Below are positions 3,981-18,579 of a stretch of 33,786 nt of DNA, piece by piece. Source of the stretch: Acutalibacteraceae bacterium (GTDB lineage: Bacteria > Bacillota > Clostridia > Oscillospirales > Acutalibacteraceae). Each line of letters starts with the position of its first letter. The first letter of the stretch is position 1. The notes beneath the pieces are model-generated. The model made no database searches and had not been told where the DNA came from. It was given only the letters and a program-made list of their open reading frames with translations. A program made the position numbers and the translations under genes. The stretch is taken from contig JAZOBW010000071.1 of NCBI GenBank assembly GCA_045596185.1, positions 1-33,786 on the forward strand, read 5' to 3'.

Positions 3981-6900
3981 TTAGAACAATGATATCTGAT
4001 TTGTTTCGGGCAGGTCGTCCATAGCGCCTAAATCTGCAAGGTTCTGGATTATTGTTTTGGAAACACCTGCTTCTATTGCAAAGTCTTCGCGAGAAACAAA
4101 GTTACCCTCCTGTGCGGCTTTATAAATAGAATATGCCGCCTTTTCTCCAACGCCTGAAAGCGCACCGAACGGCAGACGCATCTTGCCGTTTTCGGGAACA
4201 AACTTCATAGCGTGGGAGTGATTTATGTCTATAGGCAGAACCTCGATACCGCGCGCCATCATCTCGTTAAATATAAGAAGCGTGTTGTATGTATCGAGTT
4301 CCTTTTTACTTGCTTCCTTGCCCTTTGACTTGATTGCCGTCATCATACGGCGTACCGCCTGTCTACCCTGAATTATGGTGGGAACATCAACATCTTCGGG
4401 ACGGGCGGTAAAGTATGCACAGTAAAATTCCAACGGACGGTATACCTTATACCAAGCAACACGAAGCGCCGAAATAACATATGCTGCCGCGTGGGCCTTG
4501 GGAAACATATACTTTATCTTATAGCAGGATTCAATATACCATTCAGGAACACCTACTTTTCGCATACTTTCTTCCATAGATGCCCATTCTTCTTTAGAAA
4601 CCTTGCCTTTAGCGACAAGTCCTTTACGAACAGTCTCGGTTATCTTGAAGGCAAGGCCCTCCTCCATACCCTGATGTATAAGGTAAACCATTATATTATC
4701 ACGGGTACCTATAACCTCTGAAATAGTGCATATTCCCTTTTCAATAAGATCCTTTGCATTACCGAGGTAAACATCGGTACCGTGCGAAAGACCCGAAATT
4801 TGCAGAAGATCGGCAAAATTTTTAGGTTTACAGTCAAGCAACATTCCACGAACAAACTCTGTACCGAACTCAGGCAGACAGAATGTTCCGGTTTTTGATT
4901 CGATCTCTTCGGGTTCAACACCTAAAGCCTCGGTAGAAGTGAAAAGGCTGTACACCTTTGGGTCACTCATCGAAACATCGTTTACGGGAATTCCAGAATA
5001 CTCTTCTAAATACTTATAGGTAGTAGGTACAACATGACCGAGTTCATCGAGTTTGAGAATGGTATCATGGATAGAATGGAAATCAAAATGGGTTGTTATA
5101 ACATCCGATTCACTGTCATCAGCAGGATGCTGAACGGGACAGAAATCATATATTGTCTTATCTCTGGGCACAACTATCATTCCGGCAGGATGCTGACCAG
5201 TGGTCTGCTTTACCTGTGCTTTTTCTACCATCGATGCAAGGCGGTTAAGTTCCGCACCGCTAAGGGTGATACCCATATGTTCAGCATAAGCCTTCGAAAA
5301 ACCGTAGGCGGTTTTTTCGGCTATGGTGGTTATTGTTCCTGCCTTGAAAACATTCTCGCTACCAAAAAGTGTTTCGGTGTATTTCTGAACGGCAGTCTGT
5401 ACTTCATCCGAAAAGTTAAGATCGATATCGGGCACCTTGTCTCCCTTAAATCCAAGAAAGGTTTCAAAAGGTATATCGTGGCCGTTGCGATTCATAGGTG
5501 TACCGCACTTAGGGCAGTTCTTTTCGGGAAGATCAAATCCCGAACCGACAGAACCATCATTAAAAAACTCGCTTTCACAGCAGTTCGGACATACATAGTG
5601 CGGTGGCAGGGGGTTAACTTCGGAAATACCTGCCATTGTAGCAACAAATGAAGAACCTACCGAACCACGGGAACCGACAAGATAACCCTGTTCTTCACTG
5701 TAGGCAACAAGTTTCTGTGCCGAAATATACATTATCGAAAATCCGTTATTGATAATAGCGGTAAGTTCCTTATTAAGACGCTTTTCAACGATTTCGGGCA
5801 AAACTTCGCCGTATATCTTGTGGGCGTTTTCCCAACAAATGTCGCGAAGCAGATCGTCCGAGCCTTCAATAACCGGAGGATAGTTACCCTCCGGAACTGG
5901 GACAACATCGCCGCTTACCATTTCGGCTATTTTATTGGGGTTATCAATAACAAATTCTTTAGCGCGTTCACCGAAATAATCAAAATCATCAAGCATTTCC
6001 TGCGTGGATTTAAGATAAAGCGGCGCCTGATTTTCAATATCGGAAAATCCCTGTCCTGCCATTACTATCTGGCGGATAATGCCGTCGCTCTTCTTCAGGA
6101 AATGAACATCTCCTGTAGCGACAACCATTTTACCCAGTTTGTCGGCAAGTTCTACTATCTTGCGGTTAAAATTCTTTATAACATCAATCGTTTTAACATG
6201 GGCAAATCGGTTTTTAGTAACCTGACCGGATTTGGCATCAACCTTATCGGGGTTCATCGATTCCCTGACCATAAATTCATTATTTCCTATCGGCTGAATT
6301 TCAAGGTAATCATAATAATCGGCTATTTTAAGTAATTCTTCATCACTCTTGCCGTCCACCACAGCCTTATAAAGTTCGCCCTGCTCACAAGCCGAACCGA
6401 TTATAAGGCCTTCACGCAGAGCATCAAGTTTGCTTCGGTATGTAATGGGTCTGCCCTTAAAATCATGAACATGAGCCTCGGATACCAGTTTGTAAAGATT
6501 TTTAAGTCCCACGGAATTCTTTACAAGAATTATCTGGTGGTGGCGATATTTTGCAAGTTGCTTTGCATTAAGACCCGAAACATCGTTGTTTATATCATCA
6601 ACAAAATAAGCCTCCACGCCGTAGATGACCTTGAAATCGCCTCCTGCCTTTCTGATACCCTTTACAGCAGCGGCAGCAGCAGGATACGCCTGAACAACAC
6701 CGTGGTCGGTAATGGCAACCGCCTTGTGGCCCCATTTATAGGCATGATTGATAATGTCCCCTGCACTTGACACCGCATCTTTTGAAGACATATTAGTATG
6801 GCAGTGTAATTCCACTCTTTTTTCGCCATCATAAGAATCGGTCTCCTTGTATGGTTGCAAAAGGGCTATCGATTTTGGATTTACTATATACGCCTTTTTA

Positions 6901-14088: not shown

Positions 14089-15267
14089 TTATTCAATAAT
14101 ACGGCCCCGTTTTATACTGTCGTTTCCGAAACGGTCTCTTACCGACTGTATCGAGTCCTCTATCTGTTCCTGACGCATATCGTCCCTAGAAGAACCGAAA
14201 AGATCCTGCTGAACGGCAGGTTGTGCGGTCAGCCGTATCGCTCGTATTCCTACCGAACGAAGCGGCTGTTCAAACCGATAGTTTTCATCGAATATCTTCA
14301 TTCCCTTTTTGGCTATCGGTATTGCCGAATTCATCGCTTCGGGTATACTTTTTGAAAACTCTTTTACCTTAAGTGAAATATTACGCGTGTGTATCTGTAT
14401 TCCCATTGCATAAAGTCCCTTTTTGCGAAGTTGGCGTGATATGTCCTCCGAAAGTTCTAAAAATATCTTCCACACCTCTTCGCGGTCGGTTATATCGTGG
14501 TCGGGAGTCACGGAACGACCAACACTTTTCGGTAGGTAATCGTCACTCACGGGTGTTACCGGCGAACAATCAAGTCCCAATGCATAATCCCTTACCATCT
14601 GCCCCGATTTTCCCAATAACCGTGTAAGCATATCCGGATTGCACCTTGCCGCGTCGCCAATCGTAAATACGCCTAATTCCTTAAGCCGTTCGGCGGTACT
14701 GTTACCGACAAAGAGTAATTTCCTTATAGGATAATCCCATATCTTTTCCCTGAAATCTTCCTTTTTTATCGACATTATGCTGTTATAGCCTGCATTATCG
14801 GAGCCGAGTTTTGCAAATATTTTATTAAAACTCACCCCTATGGATACCGTGATACCAAGTTCGGTTTTTATATCGTTTTTTATTCTTTCGGCTATCGTTT
14901 CTCCCGAACCGAAAAGAATCGTGCTTCCCGTAACATCAAGCCAACACTCATCAATACCGAAAGGCTCAATAAGGTCGGTGTAGCGCTCATATATCCTGTG
15001 CGCCGACTGTGAATATTCAGAATACTTTTTATAATCGGGGGAAAGTGTTACAAGTGCAGGGCATTTGCGCTTTGCCTCCCACACAGCCTCTGCGGTTTTT
15101 ACACCCATAGACTTTGCTATCTCGTTCTTTGCAAGTACTATTCCGTGGCGATCCTCGGTGCTTCCGCATACCGCAACCGGAAGATCGTACAGCGTAGGGT
15201 TCGACAGTAATGAAACCGATGCAAAAAAATTATTAAGATCACAATGCAGTATGATCCTATCCTTCAT
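14089..15267 (-). CDS. Y-family (DinB/UmuC-like) translesion DNA polymerase
   Basis: The start is set at the ATG at 15267 (MKDRIILHCDLNNFFASV), preceded by a strong RBS (AGGAGG). Y-family motifs DLNNFFASV and GIDECWLDVTG are present. The listed 17-codon N-terminal extension is rejected. Confidence 0.9.
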   Translation of the reverse strand: MKDRIILHCDLNNFFASVSLLSNPTLYDLPVAVCGSTEDRHGIVLAKNEIAKSMGVKTAEAVWEAKRKCPALVTLSPDYKKYSEYSQSAHRIYERYTDLIEPFGIDECWLDVTGSTILFGSGETIAERIKNDIKTELGITVSIGVSFNKIFAKLGSDNAGYNSIMSIKKEDFREKIWDYPIRKLLFVGNSTAERLKELGVFTIGDAARCNPDMLTRLLGKSGQMVRDYALGLDCSPVTPVSDDYLPKSVGRSVTPDHDITDREEVWKIFLELSEDISRQLRKKGLYAMGIQIHTRNISLKVKEFSKSIPEAMNSAIPIAKKGMKIFDENYRFEQPLRSVGIRAIRLTAQPAVQQDLFGSSRDDMRQEQIEDSIQSVRDRFGNDSIKRGRIIE

Positions 15268-15318
15268 TACGCCGCCTCCTCTACGAATCGCGTTAAAATA
15301 ATTATACCACATAATCAA

Positions 15319-15639
15319 TCAGTTTTGAACACAAAATTTCTCCAGTGCCTTTATGTGCAACCTTTCTATCTGTCGTTTGCTGTAGTTGAATTGATAACTT
15401 ATCTCCTCAAGCGTTCTTCCGCATATATATTTCTGCGAAAGTATCTCGCTTAGAATATCGCCATCGGTGGCGTCGATACAGTCCTCGATAAGATTTCTAA
15501 ATCTGCGACACTCCCTTATGGACGCACGATATCTGTCTGCCCTTTCAGGACAACGTTTTCGCATCTCCTCAAGTCGCTGTATCTTGGATTGCTGTATCCT
15601 ATACTGCTTCAAAAAGCGCTTCTTTTCCTCAATCGTCAT
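15319..15639 (-). CDS. Small sigma-70 region-4-like HTH protein (phage/ICE-type, DUF1492/ArpU-like)
   Basis: 106 aa. An N-terminal coiled segment is followed by GRTLEEISYQFNYSKRQIERLHIKALEKF, a region-4-type HTH. Its start abuts the stop of the upstream zinc-ribbon gene (TGAATG). Confidence 0.6.
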   Translation of the reverse strand: MTIEEKKRFLKQYRIQQSKIQRLEEMRKRCPERADRYRASIRECRRFRNLIEDCIDATDGDILSEILSQKYICGRTLEEISYQFNYSKRQIERLHIKALEKFCVQN

Positions 15640-16026
15640 TCAGTGTCCTCCCTTTCCCGAAATGCTGGGTAATATCCTTGCGACATACTGTCCGTATGTA
15701 TAGCAGGTCTTGTTGCGGCGATTATAATCTTCGAGTTCCAATGTAATCATATTGATGGGATCAACTGCATTCCTGCGACGCCGCCGCTGCTCATATCGCC
15801 AAAGTTTCATTCCCGCATTTCTGCAGGAATCACTGCAAAAATCCCGTCGATCGGTCAGAATGATTCCGCAGTGATGACACCGCCTTATCTTATTTTCCTT
15901 TATTTTGCTGCTATTGCAAAAAGGACAGACCGCAACGCCTTCAAAAGGCGGTTCGTCAAAACCGTGTTCCTCAAAAAATAGATCAAATTTTTCAAATTTT
16001 CTACCACAGTCCGTACAAATGTACAT
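15640..16026 (-). CDS. Cys-rich double zinc-ribbon protein of unknown function
   Basis: The start is set at the ATG at 16026 (MYICTDCGRKF), after the RBS AAAGGAG. It has CxxC...CxxC, then CxxC...FCSDSC, then an Arg-rich tract (RRRRR). Confidence 0.6.
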   Translation of the reverse strand: MYICTDCGRKFEKFDLFFEEHGFDEPPFEGVAVCPFCNSSKIKENKIRRCHHCGIILTDRRDFCSDSCRNAGMKLWRYEQRRRRRNAVDPINMITLELEDYNRRNKTCYTYGQYVARILPSISGKGGH

Positions 16027-16052: not shown

Positions 16053-16081
16053 TTGACAATTACGAAAATTCGGTATATAAT
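16053..16081 (+). promoter_or_regulatory. Perfect-consensus SigA promoter (TTGACA-17-TATAAT) reading toward xre/immA/M/R
   Basis: ttgaca at 16053-16058 and tataat at 16076-16081. The spacer carries ttacgaaaattcggta, an imperfect copy of the TTACG-N6-CGTAA motif. Confidence 0.75.
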
Positions 16082-16180
16082 GCGAATTGCAAGGAAGATT
16101 TTTTCGAGTTCTCGTAATTACGATTACATTATATTACGCTTTTTCGTAAATGTCAAGTGCAATTTTACGAATTCGCGTAA
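16060..16180. repeat. Set of operator-like palindromes built on the half-site TTACG/CGTAA
   Basis: Four copies: ttacg-aaaatt-cggta (16060-16075), cgtaattacg (16113-16122), ttacg-cttttt-cgtaa (16134-16149) and ttacg-aattcg-cgtaa (16165-16180). Confidence 0.65.
16128..16156 (-). promoter_or_regulatory. Perfect-consensus SigA promoter (TTGACA-17-TATAAT on the minus strand) reading toward the zinc-ribbon/sigma4-like/polymerase operon
   Basis: The minus strand reads gcacTTGACAtttacgaaaaagcgtaaTATAATg. The 17-nt spacer is almost entirely the palindrome at 16134-16149. Confidence 0.75.
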
Positions 16181-16201: not shown

Positions 16202-16534
16202 ATGCCGGATATCTACACTAGAATTGAGGAACTTTGCCGAAAGAAAGGAATCAATGTAACCCAACTTTGCACAGCCTGCAATATCCCCCGTGCATCGCTG
16301 TCGGATTACAAGACGGGAAGAAAAAAAACACTGTCCGCCGAAGTACTGTCAAAAATAGCAGACTTTTTCGGTGTCAGTGTCGATTTTCTGTACGGAAAGG
16401 AACCACGCTTTGCAGATGAACAATCCCTTAAAGTTGCACTTTTCGGTGGTAGTTCCGATGTTACTGATGAAATGTGGGACGAAGTTAAACGTTATGCGCA
16501 ATATATCAAGGAGAGGAATAATGGAAACCGCTAA
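16202..16534 (+). CDS. XRE-family HTH transcriptional repressor (ImmR/DdrO-like partner of the downstream metalloprotease)
   Basis: 110 aa. IEELCRKKGINVTQLCTACNIPRASLSDYKTGRKK is a classic Cro/C1-type HTH, followed by a C-terminal tail of about 45 aa. RBS AAAGGAAG. The 3' end overlaps the next gene by 14 nt. Confidence 0.85.
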   Translation: MPDIYTRIEELCRKKGINVTQLCTACNIPRASLSDYKTGRKKTLSAEVLSKIADFFGVSVDFLYGKEPRFADEQSLKVALFGGSSDVTDEMWDEVKRYAQYIKERNNGNR

Positions 16535-16916
16535 TCTTTACCGTATTGCCGAAAATAACGGTATAGCCGTAGACCGATTTCCCCTGCCCGAAAACCGCTC
16601 ATTAGCATTTATGGATGGTGACGCTATGTATGTAGCCATCGATAAAAACATACGCGGTGCAGAAGAACGGGTGTGCCTCGCACACGAGTTAGGCCACTGC
16701 CAAACCGCAAGTTTTTACAACATATATTCACCGCTCGATGTACGCCAAAAGCACGAAAGACGTGCCGATAAGTGGGCGATTAAGGCGCTAATCCCGAAAT
16801 CGGTCTATCGTAATGCTCTTAAACGGGGATACGACAACATCTATTCCCTTGCCGAATTTTTCGGCGTAACAGCCGATTTTATGAAAAAGGCTGTTGAATT
16901 TTATAGTAATTCGTAA
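16521..16916 (+). CDS. ImmA/IrrE-family (COG2856, M78) zinc metallopeptidase
   Basis: The start is set at the ATG at 16521 after the RBS AAGGAGAGG. HExxH is present in CLAHELGHCQT. Its size and its position just after an XRE gene are typical of ImmA/IrrE. Confidence 0.8.
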   Translation: METANLYRIAENNGIAVDRFPLPENRSLAFMDGDAMYVAIDKNIRGAEERVCLAHELGHCQTASFYNIYSPLDVRQKHERRADKWAIKALIPKSVYRNALKRGYDNIYSLAEFFGVTADFMKKAVEFYSNS

Positions 16917-16947: not shown

Positions 16948-17895
16948 ATGCCGCAAGAAAAGGCGCCACGCAACAAAACTATAGATACAACTGTATCTGA
17001 CGGCAAACACTATCTTGACCGTTGCATAAAAATAGAAACGGTTCAAAACGATCTTGACAAAATTCTCGACAAAACCATTCATGGAAATACATTTGAAGTT
17101 TCTTCGCTTTTACCACGTGAAAGCGTTGACTTGATAATCGCAGACCCACCATATAACCTTACAAAAAACTACAATGGAACTTTATTCAAAAAGAAAAATG
17201 CCTCCGAATACGAACTATATACAAGAAAATGGATAGAAAGTATATATCCGCTCCTGAAACCCAACGGTTCTATTTATGTTTGTTGTGATTGGGAGACCAG
17301 TTTAATAATCGGAAACATTCTTAATGAATATTTTACCGTGCGTAACCGCATAACCTGGCAACGCGAAAAAGGCAGGGGTGCGAAGGATAATTGGAAAAAT
17401 GGAATGGAGGATATATGGTACGCAACAAAATCAAATACATTCACATTTAATGTAGATCGGGTTAAAATCCGCAAAAAGGTAATTGCCCCATACAAAGTTG
17501 ATGGTGTGCCAAAAGACTGGGAAGAAACCGATAACGGAAATTTCAGGGATACATACCCTTCAAATTTCTGGGATGATATTACCATTCCCTTCTGGTCAAT
17601 GCCGGAAAACACTGCGCATCCCACCCAGAAATCAGAAAAATTGTATGCCAAAATCATTCTTGCAAGTTCAAATCCTAATGACATTGTATTTGACCCATTT
17701 CTTGGTTCAGGAACAACCAGTGTTGTTGCAAAAAAACTGGGTAGACATTACATTGGAATAGAAATAGAAGACCAATATTGTCTTTGGGCAGAACAGCGGT
17801 TGGAAATGGCGGAATCGCAACGCGATATACAAGGATTTACAAATAATGTTTTTTGGGAAAGAAATACATTGAACCAACAGTCTAAACAAAAATAA
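16948..17895 (+). CDS. Beta-class N6-adenine or N4-cytosine DNA methyltransferase (PF01555-type)
   Basis: Motif IV DLIIADPPYNL lies upstream of motif I FDPFLGSGTTSVVA (order IV then I, which defines the beta class). The start is set at the ATG at 16948. Confidence 0.9.
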   Translation: MPQEKAPRNKTIDTTVSDGKHYLDRCIKIETVQNDLDKILDKTIHGNTFEVSSLLPRESVDLIIADPPYNLTKNYNGTLFKKKNASEYELYTRKWIESIYPLLKPNGSIYVCCDWETSLIIGNILNEYFTVRNRITWQREKGRGAKDNWKNGMEDIWYATKSNTFTFNVDRVKIRKKVIAPYKVDGVPKDWEETDNGNFRDTYPSNFWDDITIPFWSMPENTAHPTQKSEKLYAKIILASSNPNDIVFDPFLGSGTTSVVAKKLGRHYIGIEIEDQYCLWAEQRLEMAESQRDIQGFTNNVFWERNTLNQQSKQK

Positions 17896-17913
17896 AAATA
17901 AGGATGTGTTATT

Positions 17914-18579
17914 ATGAATCCGATCTTAAGCGACGATACCATAAAAGAAGTAGAAAATAGTATAATAAACCGGCTAAACAAACTTCCAGATTTTCAAAAT
18001 CCTCGCATCAATAACAGTCCCCGTTCTATTGGAGATACCGTTCAAGATGTGATGGGAGAAATTTTACCATCGTGTTTTCCGGAAAAATTGTTAAAAAATT
18101 TCAGCGCTGATTTTGCAAGACGAGCGATGGCAGACCTTGCTTTTTCGGATGTAGATGACAACTACTATATAGTGGATATTAAAACACACAACACATCTAC
18201 CGATTTCAATATGCCCAATCTAACCTCCGTTGAACGACTGGCGCGATTTTACGAAGATGATAAAAACTATTTTATGGTTTTACTAGTCGAATATTCTGTT
18301 GTTAATGGAGTTTTGACATTTAATAATGCCAATTTTGTTCCCATAGAAAATTTGAAATGGGATTGTCTAACTATCGGAGCACTGGGTTGGGGACAGATTC
18401 AGATTGCAAATTCAAATATTGTTAATATTGACAGAAGTCTTAACCGAGTCGATTGGATGCTTTCGCTTTGTGACGCACTTGATATTTTCTACCCAAAAGA
18501 AATAGAAAAAATAACAGCAAGAATAAATCGATTTTGTTCCGTTCGTAAATTTTGGGAAAATAAAAAGAACAATTTATAA
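17914..18579 (+). CDS. Putative type II restriction endonuclease (PD-(D/E)XK-like), partner of the methyltransferase
   Basis: 221 aa, starting 19 nt after the MTase stop. The candidate catalytic core is D...YIVDIKT (D-x(n)-D-I-K, an EcoRV-like pattern). No other recognisable domain. The gene is A+T-rich. Confidence 0.5.
   Translation: MNPILSDDTIKEVENSIINRLNKLPDFQNPRINNSPRSIGDTVQDVMGEILPSCFPEKLLKNFSADFARRAMADLAFSDVDDNYYIVDIKTHNTSTDFNMPNLTSVERLARFYEDDKNYFMVLLVEYSVVNGVLTFNNANFVPIENLKWDCLTIGALGWGQIQIANSNIVNIDRSLNRVDWMLSLCDALDIFYPKEIEKITARINRFCSVRKFWENKKNNL

Follow-up and report, generated by a model that had tools for sequence, protein, structure and literature searches.

Error-prone polymerases are normally under LexA control. 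The streptococcal hdiR-umuC-orf3-orf4 locus is reportedly a self-contained mutagenesis cassette, with its own damage-responsive repressor and with small genes beside the translesion polymerase. Self-contained mutagenesis cassettes with a repressor of their own also include lexA-imuA-imuB-dnaE2 as well as lexA-imuY-imuB-C-dnaE2 (PMC8072749), and the Bacillus subtilis genes yqjH (polY1) and yqjX-yqjW (polY2) and the SPbeta pair yolD-uvrX are LexA-regulated (PMC6511836). Another class of damage switch pairs a repressor with a peptidase: in ImmR/ImmA (ICEBs1, phage phi105), DdrO/IrrE (Deinococcus) and CapH/CapP (the cyclic-oligonucleotide-based anti-phage signalling system, CBASS, and other defence operons), the repressor is cut by the peptidase in response to DNA damage, CapP being activated by single-stranded DNA and ImmA acting via RecA or RapI (10.1101/2022.04.27.489752; PMC8072749). 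The literature on such XRE/M78 switches that we examined makes no mention of an association with a Y-family polymerase. Here we analyse a locus of this composition from an Acutalibacteraceae bacterium (NCBI GenBank assembly GCA_045596185.1, contig JAZOBW010000071.1, positions 1 to 33,786; this whole stretch of 33,786 nucleotides is "the window" in what follows), in which the genes of a zinc-ribbon protein (ZnR), a sigma-region-4-like protein (SigL) and a Y-family DNA polymerase (Pol) lie divergent from those of an XRE-family repressor and a short ImmA-type peptidase. The cassette is a variant of the known damage-inducible polymerase cassettes and XRE/M78 switches, of which we found no published description in the literature searched. 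We read it, with a probability of about 0.55, as a damage cassette that has two inputs in most species and no longer has the LexA one in the window lineage, ZnR-SigL being a probable induced regulator.

The locus resembles ImmR/ImmA, DdrO/IrrE and CapH/CapP in that an XRE repressor gene lies beside a gene for an M78/COG2856 peptidase with a HEXXH site, divergent from the operon that it would control and with palindromic (here predicted) operators over the promoter. It departs from them in its peptidase, which has 131 residues, carries no sensor domain and is absent in about one third of the XRE-bearing relatives, and in its operon, which is not an excision module, a Deinococcus radiation-desiccation response regulon or a defence system but a phage-derived regulator pair running into a translesion polymerase. 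Compared with the hdiR-umuC and imu cassettes, the repressor is of the XRE type and would be cleaved in trans by a metallopeptidase, instead of being a self-cleaving S24 protein of the LexA/HdiR type, and the small genes are unrelated to ImuA, ImuB-C and YolD. The yqjH, yqjX-yqjW and yolD-uvrX genes share with it the polymerase branch, a clamp-type motif and a tail resembling the RecA N-terminus (RecA-NT; PMC6511836), and they differ from it in that here there is no YolD-like gene, the LexA box of the window is gone and an XRE-controlled operon would read in from upstream.

Conservation of the cassette and its two proposed inputs

ZnR, SigL and Pol follow each other in this order on the minus strand, all co-directional (Table 1), and the coordinates thus bear out the three-gene order given by a first-pass annotation of the sequence. 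SigL abuts ZnR, its first base being the base after the ZnR stop (gap of 0), and 51 nt separate SigL from Pol. The XRE and peptidase genes, which point away from these three, overlap by 14 nt; the peptidase reading frame as a whole spans 16371-16916, and its ATG at 16521 was chosen by comparison with homologues of 131 aa. Pfam and NCBIfam scans confirm Pol, the helix-turn-helix (HTH) of XRE and the peptidase, and give no above-threshold match for ZnR.

SigL has 130 homologues, none of them named, and a scan of species-representative genomes gave 127 matches. The best 80 of these all belong to Acutalibacteraceae, Oscillospiraceae or uncultured Clostridia metagenome-assembled genomes, and the following counts cover the loci with enough sequence. 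ZnR precedes SigL in 73 of 73 loci, usually with an overlap of 4-28 nt; a divergent XRE gene is present in 62/73 and the peptidase in 40/73; Pol comes directly after SigL in 66 of 71, is displaced by 5-6 kb and inverted in four, and is absent in one. L088, additional to the 71, holds all four regulatory genes and no Pol, and together with L054 it represents the small pair without an adjacent polymerase. The gene-neighbourhood survey thereby finds the small open reading frames (ORFs) kept next to the polymerase. The ratio of nonsynonymous to synonymous substitution rates is 0.32 for ZnR, 0.27 for SigL and 0.15 for Pol; given values near 0.3 for both small ORFs, these evidently are real genes.

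That the polymerase is apparently LexA-independent was another claim of the first-pass annotation, and it stands for the window. No GAAC-N4-GTTC (the LexA or Cheo box) with one mismatch or fewer lies near the locus, and a position weight matrix (PWM) built from 45 distinct sites of relatives, which themselves have a median score of 20.5 bits (5th percentile 15.7), reaches at best 6.7 bits at the locus and 11.8 bits in the whole window, the level of shuffled sequence; the reported absence of the box therefore withstands the proper PWM scan that the annotation itself had proposed. The claim fails, however, for the family. In most relatives the gap between SigL and Pol holds a dedicated promoter, (c)TTTAC(a/t)-17-TATAAT, with a canonical Cheo box (consensus AAGAACAAATGTTCGG) within a few bases 3' of its -10, and the box, at one mismatch or fewer, lies ahead of Pol in 64 of 76 loci (exactly matched in 36), against background rates of 3.3% of 150-nt windows (0.55% for exact matches). 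This placement directly 3' of the promoter is a further likeness to yqjH, yqjX-yqjW and yolD-uvrX. A Pol gene displaced by 5-6 kb still has its own promoter and Cheo box, which argues that Pol is ancestrally an ordinary LexA-boxed unit. Given that the box is kept in these 64 relatives and lost in the window clade and a few other loci, the comparison marks LexA independence as derived through a lineage-specific loss; it does not characterise the system as such.

Four loci make up the window clade, namely the window itself and the three relatives closest to it (L081, L083 and L085; SigL identity 65-69%, with L081 sharing the pyrH context of the window), all without both the -35 and the Cheo box. 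Their gap is short: TTCAAA within the SigL coding end is followed, after 17 nt, by TGnTATAAT. The box has also been lost in a group formed by L005, L006, L008, L011 and L015, and in L025, L059 and L073. We considered TAACGCGATTCG, which occupies the position of the relatives' box (15295-15284), as a remnant LexA box or XRE operator and rejected it, as it differs from either at three or more positions and L081, L083 and L085 do not conserve it.

Few hairpins that resemble terminators interrupt the way from SigL into Pol: a strict scan of the gap found them in 2 of 76 loci, with none in the window, and folding gave a hairpin with z < -2 in 10 of 69 loci, again not in the window. A terminator between SigL and Pol as a family-wide feature was rejected on these counts, and read-through from the XRE-controlled promoter into Pol is plausible. 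In some relatives (L001, L003, L007, L026, L027, L040, L044, L076, L086) an inverted repeat encloses the -35 of the Pol promoter; its arms vary from locus to locus yet stay complementary (TCCGC/GCGGA, GCTTTAC/GTAAAGC, CTCTT/AAGAG) and are sometimes followed by a run of T; these repeats could be a weak terminator or attenuator overlapping the promoter.

The proposed second input lies in the 175-nt spacer between XRE and ZnR, where the two promoters face each other so that their transcripts would overlap. Palindromes of the form TTACG-N6-CGTAA start at 16165, 16134 and 16102, a spacing of 31-32 bp, and such palindromes are kept in 61 of 67 XRE-ZnR spacers of relatives with the same phasing of about 31 bp, while a LexA box is found in 0 of the 67. 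The first-pass annotation had noted the TTACG palindromes next to the XRE/ImmA pair as the only operators present and had pointed to cleavable repressor systems by analogy; the conservation of the palindromes supports this line, and the pair likely controls the promoter ahead of ZnR.

The repressor matches HTH_26 (2.3e-11), HTH_3 (5e-10) and the PADLOC model capH (7.5e-10), and the peptidase matches Peptidase_M78 (6.9e-9), the phrog_87 metallo-protease family (8.9e-26) and PADLOC capP (1.1e-7). The HEXXH zinc site of the peptidase is intact (...CLAHELGHC...). The 131-aa protein comprises the protease domain only, covering positions 24-142 of the 242 in the capP profile, and the C-terminal GAF sensor domain found in IrrE and CapP is absent from it; in this feature it resembles the short ImmA-type enzymes more than IrrE or CapP.

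Pol itself matches IMS (1.7e-43), IMS_C (1.4e-18), IMS_HHH and the NCBIfam model PRK03103 (1.7e-96), its catalytic motifs CDLNNFFASV and GIDECWLDVTG are intact and invariant in 70 homologues, and it belongs to the Firmicute YqjH/YqjW-like branch. A check for a beta-clamp binding motif near the C-terminus, suggested earlier, found QQDLF at about 354-358, and 62 of 70 homologues have Qxx[LIMV]F after residue 330. The C-terminal tail IEDSIQSVRDRFGNDSIKRG comes after this clamp-type motif and is RecA-NT-like: its ending, ...IQSVRDRFGNDSIKRG, resembles the RecA N-terminus (FG..SI), as judged by eye against the published motif and without a score, and almost no sequence follows it. RecA-NT motifs occur in many bacterial Y-family enzymes, whose tails of this kind have been proposed to bind RecA (PMC6511836).

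Table 1. Genes and predicted control elements of the cassette, by position in the window
Feature	Coordinates	Strand	Remarks
Y-family DNA polymerase (Pol)	14089..15267	-	392 aa; ATG 15267; ribosome-binding site (RBS) GAGGAGG 15281-15275
Position of relatives' Cheo/LexA box	15284..15295	-	TAACGCGATTCG in the window; far below true sites by PWM
Internal promoter-like element before Pol	15301..15329	-	TTCAAA-17-TGgTATAAT (extended -10); TTCAAA inside SigL 3' end
SigL	15319..15639	-	106 aa; Sigma70_r4-like; phrog_36 match
ZnR	15640..16026	-	128 aa; ATG 16026; two Cys4 sites
XRE-ImmA promoter	16053..16081	+	TTGACA-17-TATAAT; consensus match 12/12
Operator 4 (predicted, weak)	16060..16075		TTACGAAAATTCGGTA, 2 mismatches; in XRE promoter spacer; position of the relatives' fourth site
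Operator 1 (predicted)	16102..16117		TTTCGAGTTCTCGTAA, 1 mismatch; in the stretch transcribed from both promoters
ZnR-SigL(-Pol) promoter	16128..16156	-	TTGACA-17-TATAAT; consensus match 12/12
Operator 2 (predicted)	16134..16149		TTACGCTTTTTCGTAA; occupies ZnR promoter spacer
Operator 3 (predicted)	16165..16180		TTACGAATTCGCGTAA; just upstream of ZnR promoter -35
XRE-family repressor	16202..16534	+	110 aa; HTH_3/HTH_26; PADLOC capH
Short M78/ImmA-type metallopeptidase	16521..16916	+	131 aa from ATG 16521; HELGH; PADLOC capP

The ZnR-SigL pair and its phage relatives

ZnR is built from a Cys4 ribbon (residues 1-44), a knuckle of the form CxxCG...FCSxxC (50-68), an Arg-rich helix and a conserved domain of two helices with the motif YN-x8-YGQYVA, in which YN...YGQY is invariant. 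Its two Cys4 sites (C4/C7/C34/C37 and C50/C53/C64/C68) are invariant or nearly so in 45 homologues, and with the RRRRR tract at 81-85 they correspond to the Cys-rich double zinc-ribbon protein that had been described from the translation. The predicted structure (predicted local distance difference test, pLDDT, 90.7) has a long basic helix, and its knuckle is weakly like those of YacG, NinG and DUF2116. Fold searches of PDB and BFVD returned partial zinc-ribbon or YacG-like matches only, with no informative whole-fold match, and the sequence search of PDB gave trivial C2H2-like similarity only. SigL scores 22.2 bits against Sigma70_r4, under the cutoff of 24.1, and 22 of 32 members of its family match the model. 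Its AlphaFold model (pLDDT 96.2) consists of a long helical hairpin (3-58) followed by three helices (HTH, 62-101), and about 54 residues superpose on region 4 of sigB, sigL, sigD, sigE and sigF (Foldseek 0.99-1.0, root-mean-square deviation 1.6-1.9 A), in agreement with the region-4-type HTH first noted for this 106-aa protein. Among phage protein families it matches phrog_36 (transcriptional regulator, 2.6e-11) and phrog_248 (activator).

The phage link rests on a profile search and on IMG/VR rather than on GenBank phages, against which tblastn gave three weak matches for SigL and none for ZnR. Run against 1.84 billion representatives, the ZnR profile recovered 37 full-length clusters (E up to 1e-30) and many proteins of 75-110 aa that match only about residues 43-127; an hhalign comparison of residues 47-125 with this short family gave 99.6% (E 7e-25). 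A sampled set of these short relatives lies in phages. In one such phage, the short-ZnR gene overlaps by 4 nt the gene for a 137-aa protein of the SigL family (hhalign 94.5%; phrog_36 2e-20), located just ahead of the large terminase. In IMG/VR, the short-ZnR gene, where clear, is in most loci followed at 0-1.1 kb by a SigL-like gene of phrog_36, many of these loci coming from one metagenome and thus not being independent, and the pair is placed between the replication and packaging modules. Given that the pair is homologous to a phage Zn-knuckle protein and a phrog_36/LtrA-type activator, it is best read as a phage-derived transcription-regulator module and not as UmuD/YolD-like subunits of Pol. 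The two proteins do differ from YolD and UmuD, as had been stated at first: neither has a Pfam or NCBIfam match to Peptidase_S24 or YolD, and their models are a zinc ribbon with helices and an all-helical sigma-region-4 protein. As a known defence system the pair was tried and rejected, PADLOC having no match for ZnR, SigL or Pol.

The Ltr superfamily of phage late activators comprises RinA, ArpU, LtrA, which is defined by Sigma70_r4, and LtrB (DUF1492), and each member acts on the promoter that comes directly after its own gene and that is without a good -35 (Quiles-Puchalt et al. 2013, PMC3753634). SigL is like them in its size of about 100 aa, its sigma region 4-type HTH, its matches to phrog_36 and phrog_248 and the position of its phage homologues between replication and packaging modules, and its expression would likewise be under a cI-like repressor. 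The likeness to the experimentally tested LtrA (phage 37) is drawn at the level of family and fold. Several features set the cassette apart from the Ltr superfamily: (i), the SigL gene is chromosomal, unlike its phage homologues, which lie like ltr genes ahead of terS and the late operon, and the polymerase gene takes the place of a downstream late operon; (ii), no repeat-type site was found in the cassette, though the window clade does have an extended -10 with a poor -35; (iii), a Zn-ribbon/knuckle partner always accompanies SigL, and the published Ltr description includes no such partner. In phage locus L094 (about 4940-5010), three 8-nt direct repeats at a spacing of 11 nt (GTTCCTAT twice, ATTCCTAT) come after the SigL-like gene and are followed by the extended -10 TGCTATAAT, an architecture that is the one published for Ltr late activators (PMC3753634). 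Looser TGTCAGT-like repeats come after the SigL-like gene of phage locus L089 (6698-6760), and no such repeats come after that of L092 or L131. The L089 gap also holds a tRNA-like sequence, a candidate by appearance.

A subgroup of ZnR proteins of about 90-97 aa (L005, L006, L008, L011, L015, L016, L024, L026, L033, L040, L043) is without the N-terminal Cys4 ribbon and resembles the short phage form; the first five of these loci also belong to those that have lost the Cheo box of Pol.

Proposed mechanism and rival explanations

We hypothesize that the cassette is a compact chromosomal DNA-damage unit of Acutalibacteraceae-type Clostridia, with the switch, ZnR-SigL and Pol as its three modules. 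To judge from the sequences, XRE most likely binds the phased TTACG-N6-CGTAA palindromes in the spacers of the two face-to-face promoters, and would thus repress its own operon and the divergent ZnR operon. If the analogy to ImmR/ImmA, DdrO/IrrE and CapH/CapP carries over, XRE would be cleaved by the peptidase after DNA damage. ZnR and SigL, translationally coupled and coming from a phage pair, would then most likely be a transcription-regulator module induced by the switch. In most relatives, Pol would receive a LexA input at its proximal promoter and an XRE input by read-through from the distal promoter. The window lineage appears to have deleted the -35 and the Cheo box and to have kept the extended -10, so that Pol would be LexA-independent in cis and its expression should depend on read-through from the XRE promoter and on a weak internal promoter without a recognisable operator.

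Several points weigh against this two-input reading. The binding of the palindromes by XRE and its cleavage are taken by analogy from the behaviour of these families. The damage-sensing step is the weakest of the chain, because the peptidase is without the GAF sensor of IrrE and CapP, and of the 62 loci with XRE, 22 have no peptidase. The cassette showed neither direct repeats of the Ltr type nor another candidate target site of SigL, and the Pol promoter of the relatives looks like a self-sufficient sigma-A promoter. In the window lineage, the internal extended -10 could make Pol largely constitutive instead of XRE-dependent.

The role of the small pair is where the alternatives diverge most. 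ZnR and SigL could be accessory or regulatory subunits of Pol that replace UmuD or YolD and act on the protein and not on transcription, as the first-pass annotation had suggested. The very strong adjacency to Pol (66/71 loci) fits this, as does the lack of any YolD or UmuD homologue in the cassette, and DNA binding at lesions could be a property of zinc ribbons and basic helices. However, the phage homologues of the pair lie at the boundary of replication and packaging with no polymerase nearby, some loci have the pair with no Pol beside it (L088, L054) or with Pol at a distance of 5-6 kb, and the Pol of most relatives is under a promoter and operator of its own. SigL, moreover, is modelled with the DNA-binding fold of sigma region 4, and Pol, with almost nothing past its RecA-NT-like tail, is built like the YqjH-type enzymes that are not YolD-linked (PMC6511836). 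Homology to phage regulators and occurrence without an adjacent Pol make the accessory role the weaker reading of the pair, and we hold it to be unlikely. Less improbable, if still doubtful, is a feed-forward circuit in which SigL, with ZnR, activates the Pol promoter, such that full expression needs both LexA and XRE to be cleaved and the activator is the main control in the window lineage. The Ltr activators, in the published cases (PMC3753634) and in the phage loci, target a promoter without a good -35 just 3' of their own gene; this is exactly how the window clade's Pol promoter is built, as a TGnTATAAT whose -35 is poor, and the position of Pol directly 3' of SigL is conserved. Yet neither the window clade nor the relatives showed direct repeats upstream of the Pol -10, most relatives have a good TTTACA -35 that needs no activator, and a displaced Pol keeps its promoter without the SigL 3' end upstream.

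A wider version of the same idea would make the cassette a domesticated phage cascade, a second and LexA-independent damage response that runs from XRE and the ImmA-type peptidase through a two-protein Ltr-type activator to Pol, its first output and one physically linked to it, and that has replaced the LexA control of Pol in the window lineage. We regard this as a tentative possibility; were it true, the Zn-ribbon/sigma-region-4 pair would be a new class of two-component activator common to phages and their hosts. At the other extreme, XRE/ImmA-ZnR-SigL might be the decaying regulatory remnant of a prophage or integrative and conjugative element (ICE) that sits beside an ordinary SOS polymerase with no functional link to it. 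For all four proteins the closest functional analogues are indeed those of phages or ICEs, and the cassette is found in different genomic contexts across genomes, with flanking genes that are housekeeping genes and differ from genome to genome. Decay is nevertheless hard to reconcile with a block that at least 80 species-level genomes (127 matched) conserve, whose genes are translationally coupled and evolve under purifying selection, and whose operators are kept; the loci inspected contained neither an integrase nor att-like repeats nor phage structural genes, and the linkage to Pol survives the change of genomic context. We consider this the least credible explanation and very improbable.

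Under the two-input reading that we prefer, a widespread group of gut Clostridia would have placed a polymerase behind an additional phage-type repressor/protease switch, a role that is proposed here, and a phage-derived regulator pair. If the switch senses damage, the cassette would be a natural rewiring of mutagenesis control from LexA to XRE/M78, and also a case in which a host recruited an activator module of phage late genes. Two uncharacterised families are in any case defined with their genomic context, ZnR (37 representative clusters and the short relatives) and SigL (at least 130 members).

Variant leaders, insertions and neighbouring genes

Eleven of the 73 loci have no XRE gene (L020, L030, L038, L049, L067-L071, L073, L074). 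About 170 nt upstream of ZnR, the leaders of these loci share the conserved stretch GTTTACA...TTTTTTCTTT, after which come palindromes of differing sequence that keep their symmetry; some of these can pair with the RBS, for example CTCCTTT...AAAGGAG in L071, which suggests a different control mechanism for the XRE-less leaders. At the first codons of ZnR in the window (16013-16026, minus strand), ATGTACATTTGTAC forms a GTAC-N4-GTAC palindrome. It is the top LexA-PWM score of the locus, still a very low one, and probably arises only because the MYxC coding sequence is conserved.

In L020 (8291-14612), and also in L030, L038 and L069, a block of 5-6 kb lies between SigL and an inverted Pol-LytR segment. 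This block has a strong promoter of its own and encodes three proteins without a Pfam match, a PqqD-like protein and a weakly S24-like peptidase; an Rfam search of the L020 insertion gave no match. It could be a cluster of the ribosomally synthesized and post-translationally modified peptide type.

On the other side of the window cassette, pyrH, frr, uppS, cdsA and dxr lie downstream of Pol on the same strand. Directly 3' of the XRE and peptidase genes, on their strand and almost without a gap, the window (16948-18579, plus strand) encodes a type II N6/N4 DNA methyltransferase (PADLOC MTase_II, 8e-71) and, as a second product, a putative restriction enzyme of 221 aa with a weak HincII-like match. 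Among the loci inspected, the window alone has these two genes; they look like a restriction-modification island inserted behind the switch, with which they might be co-transcribed.

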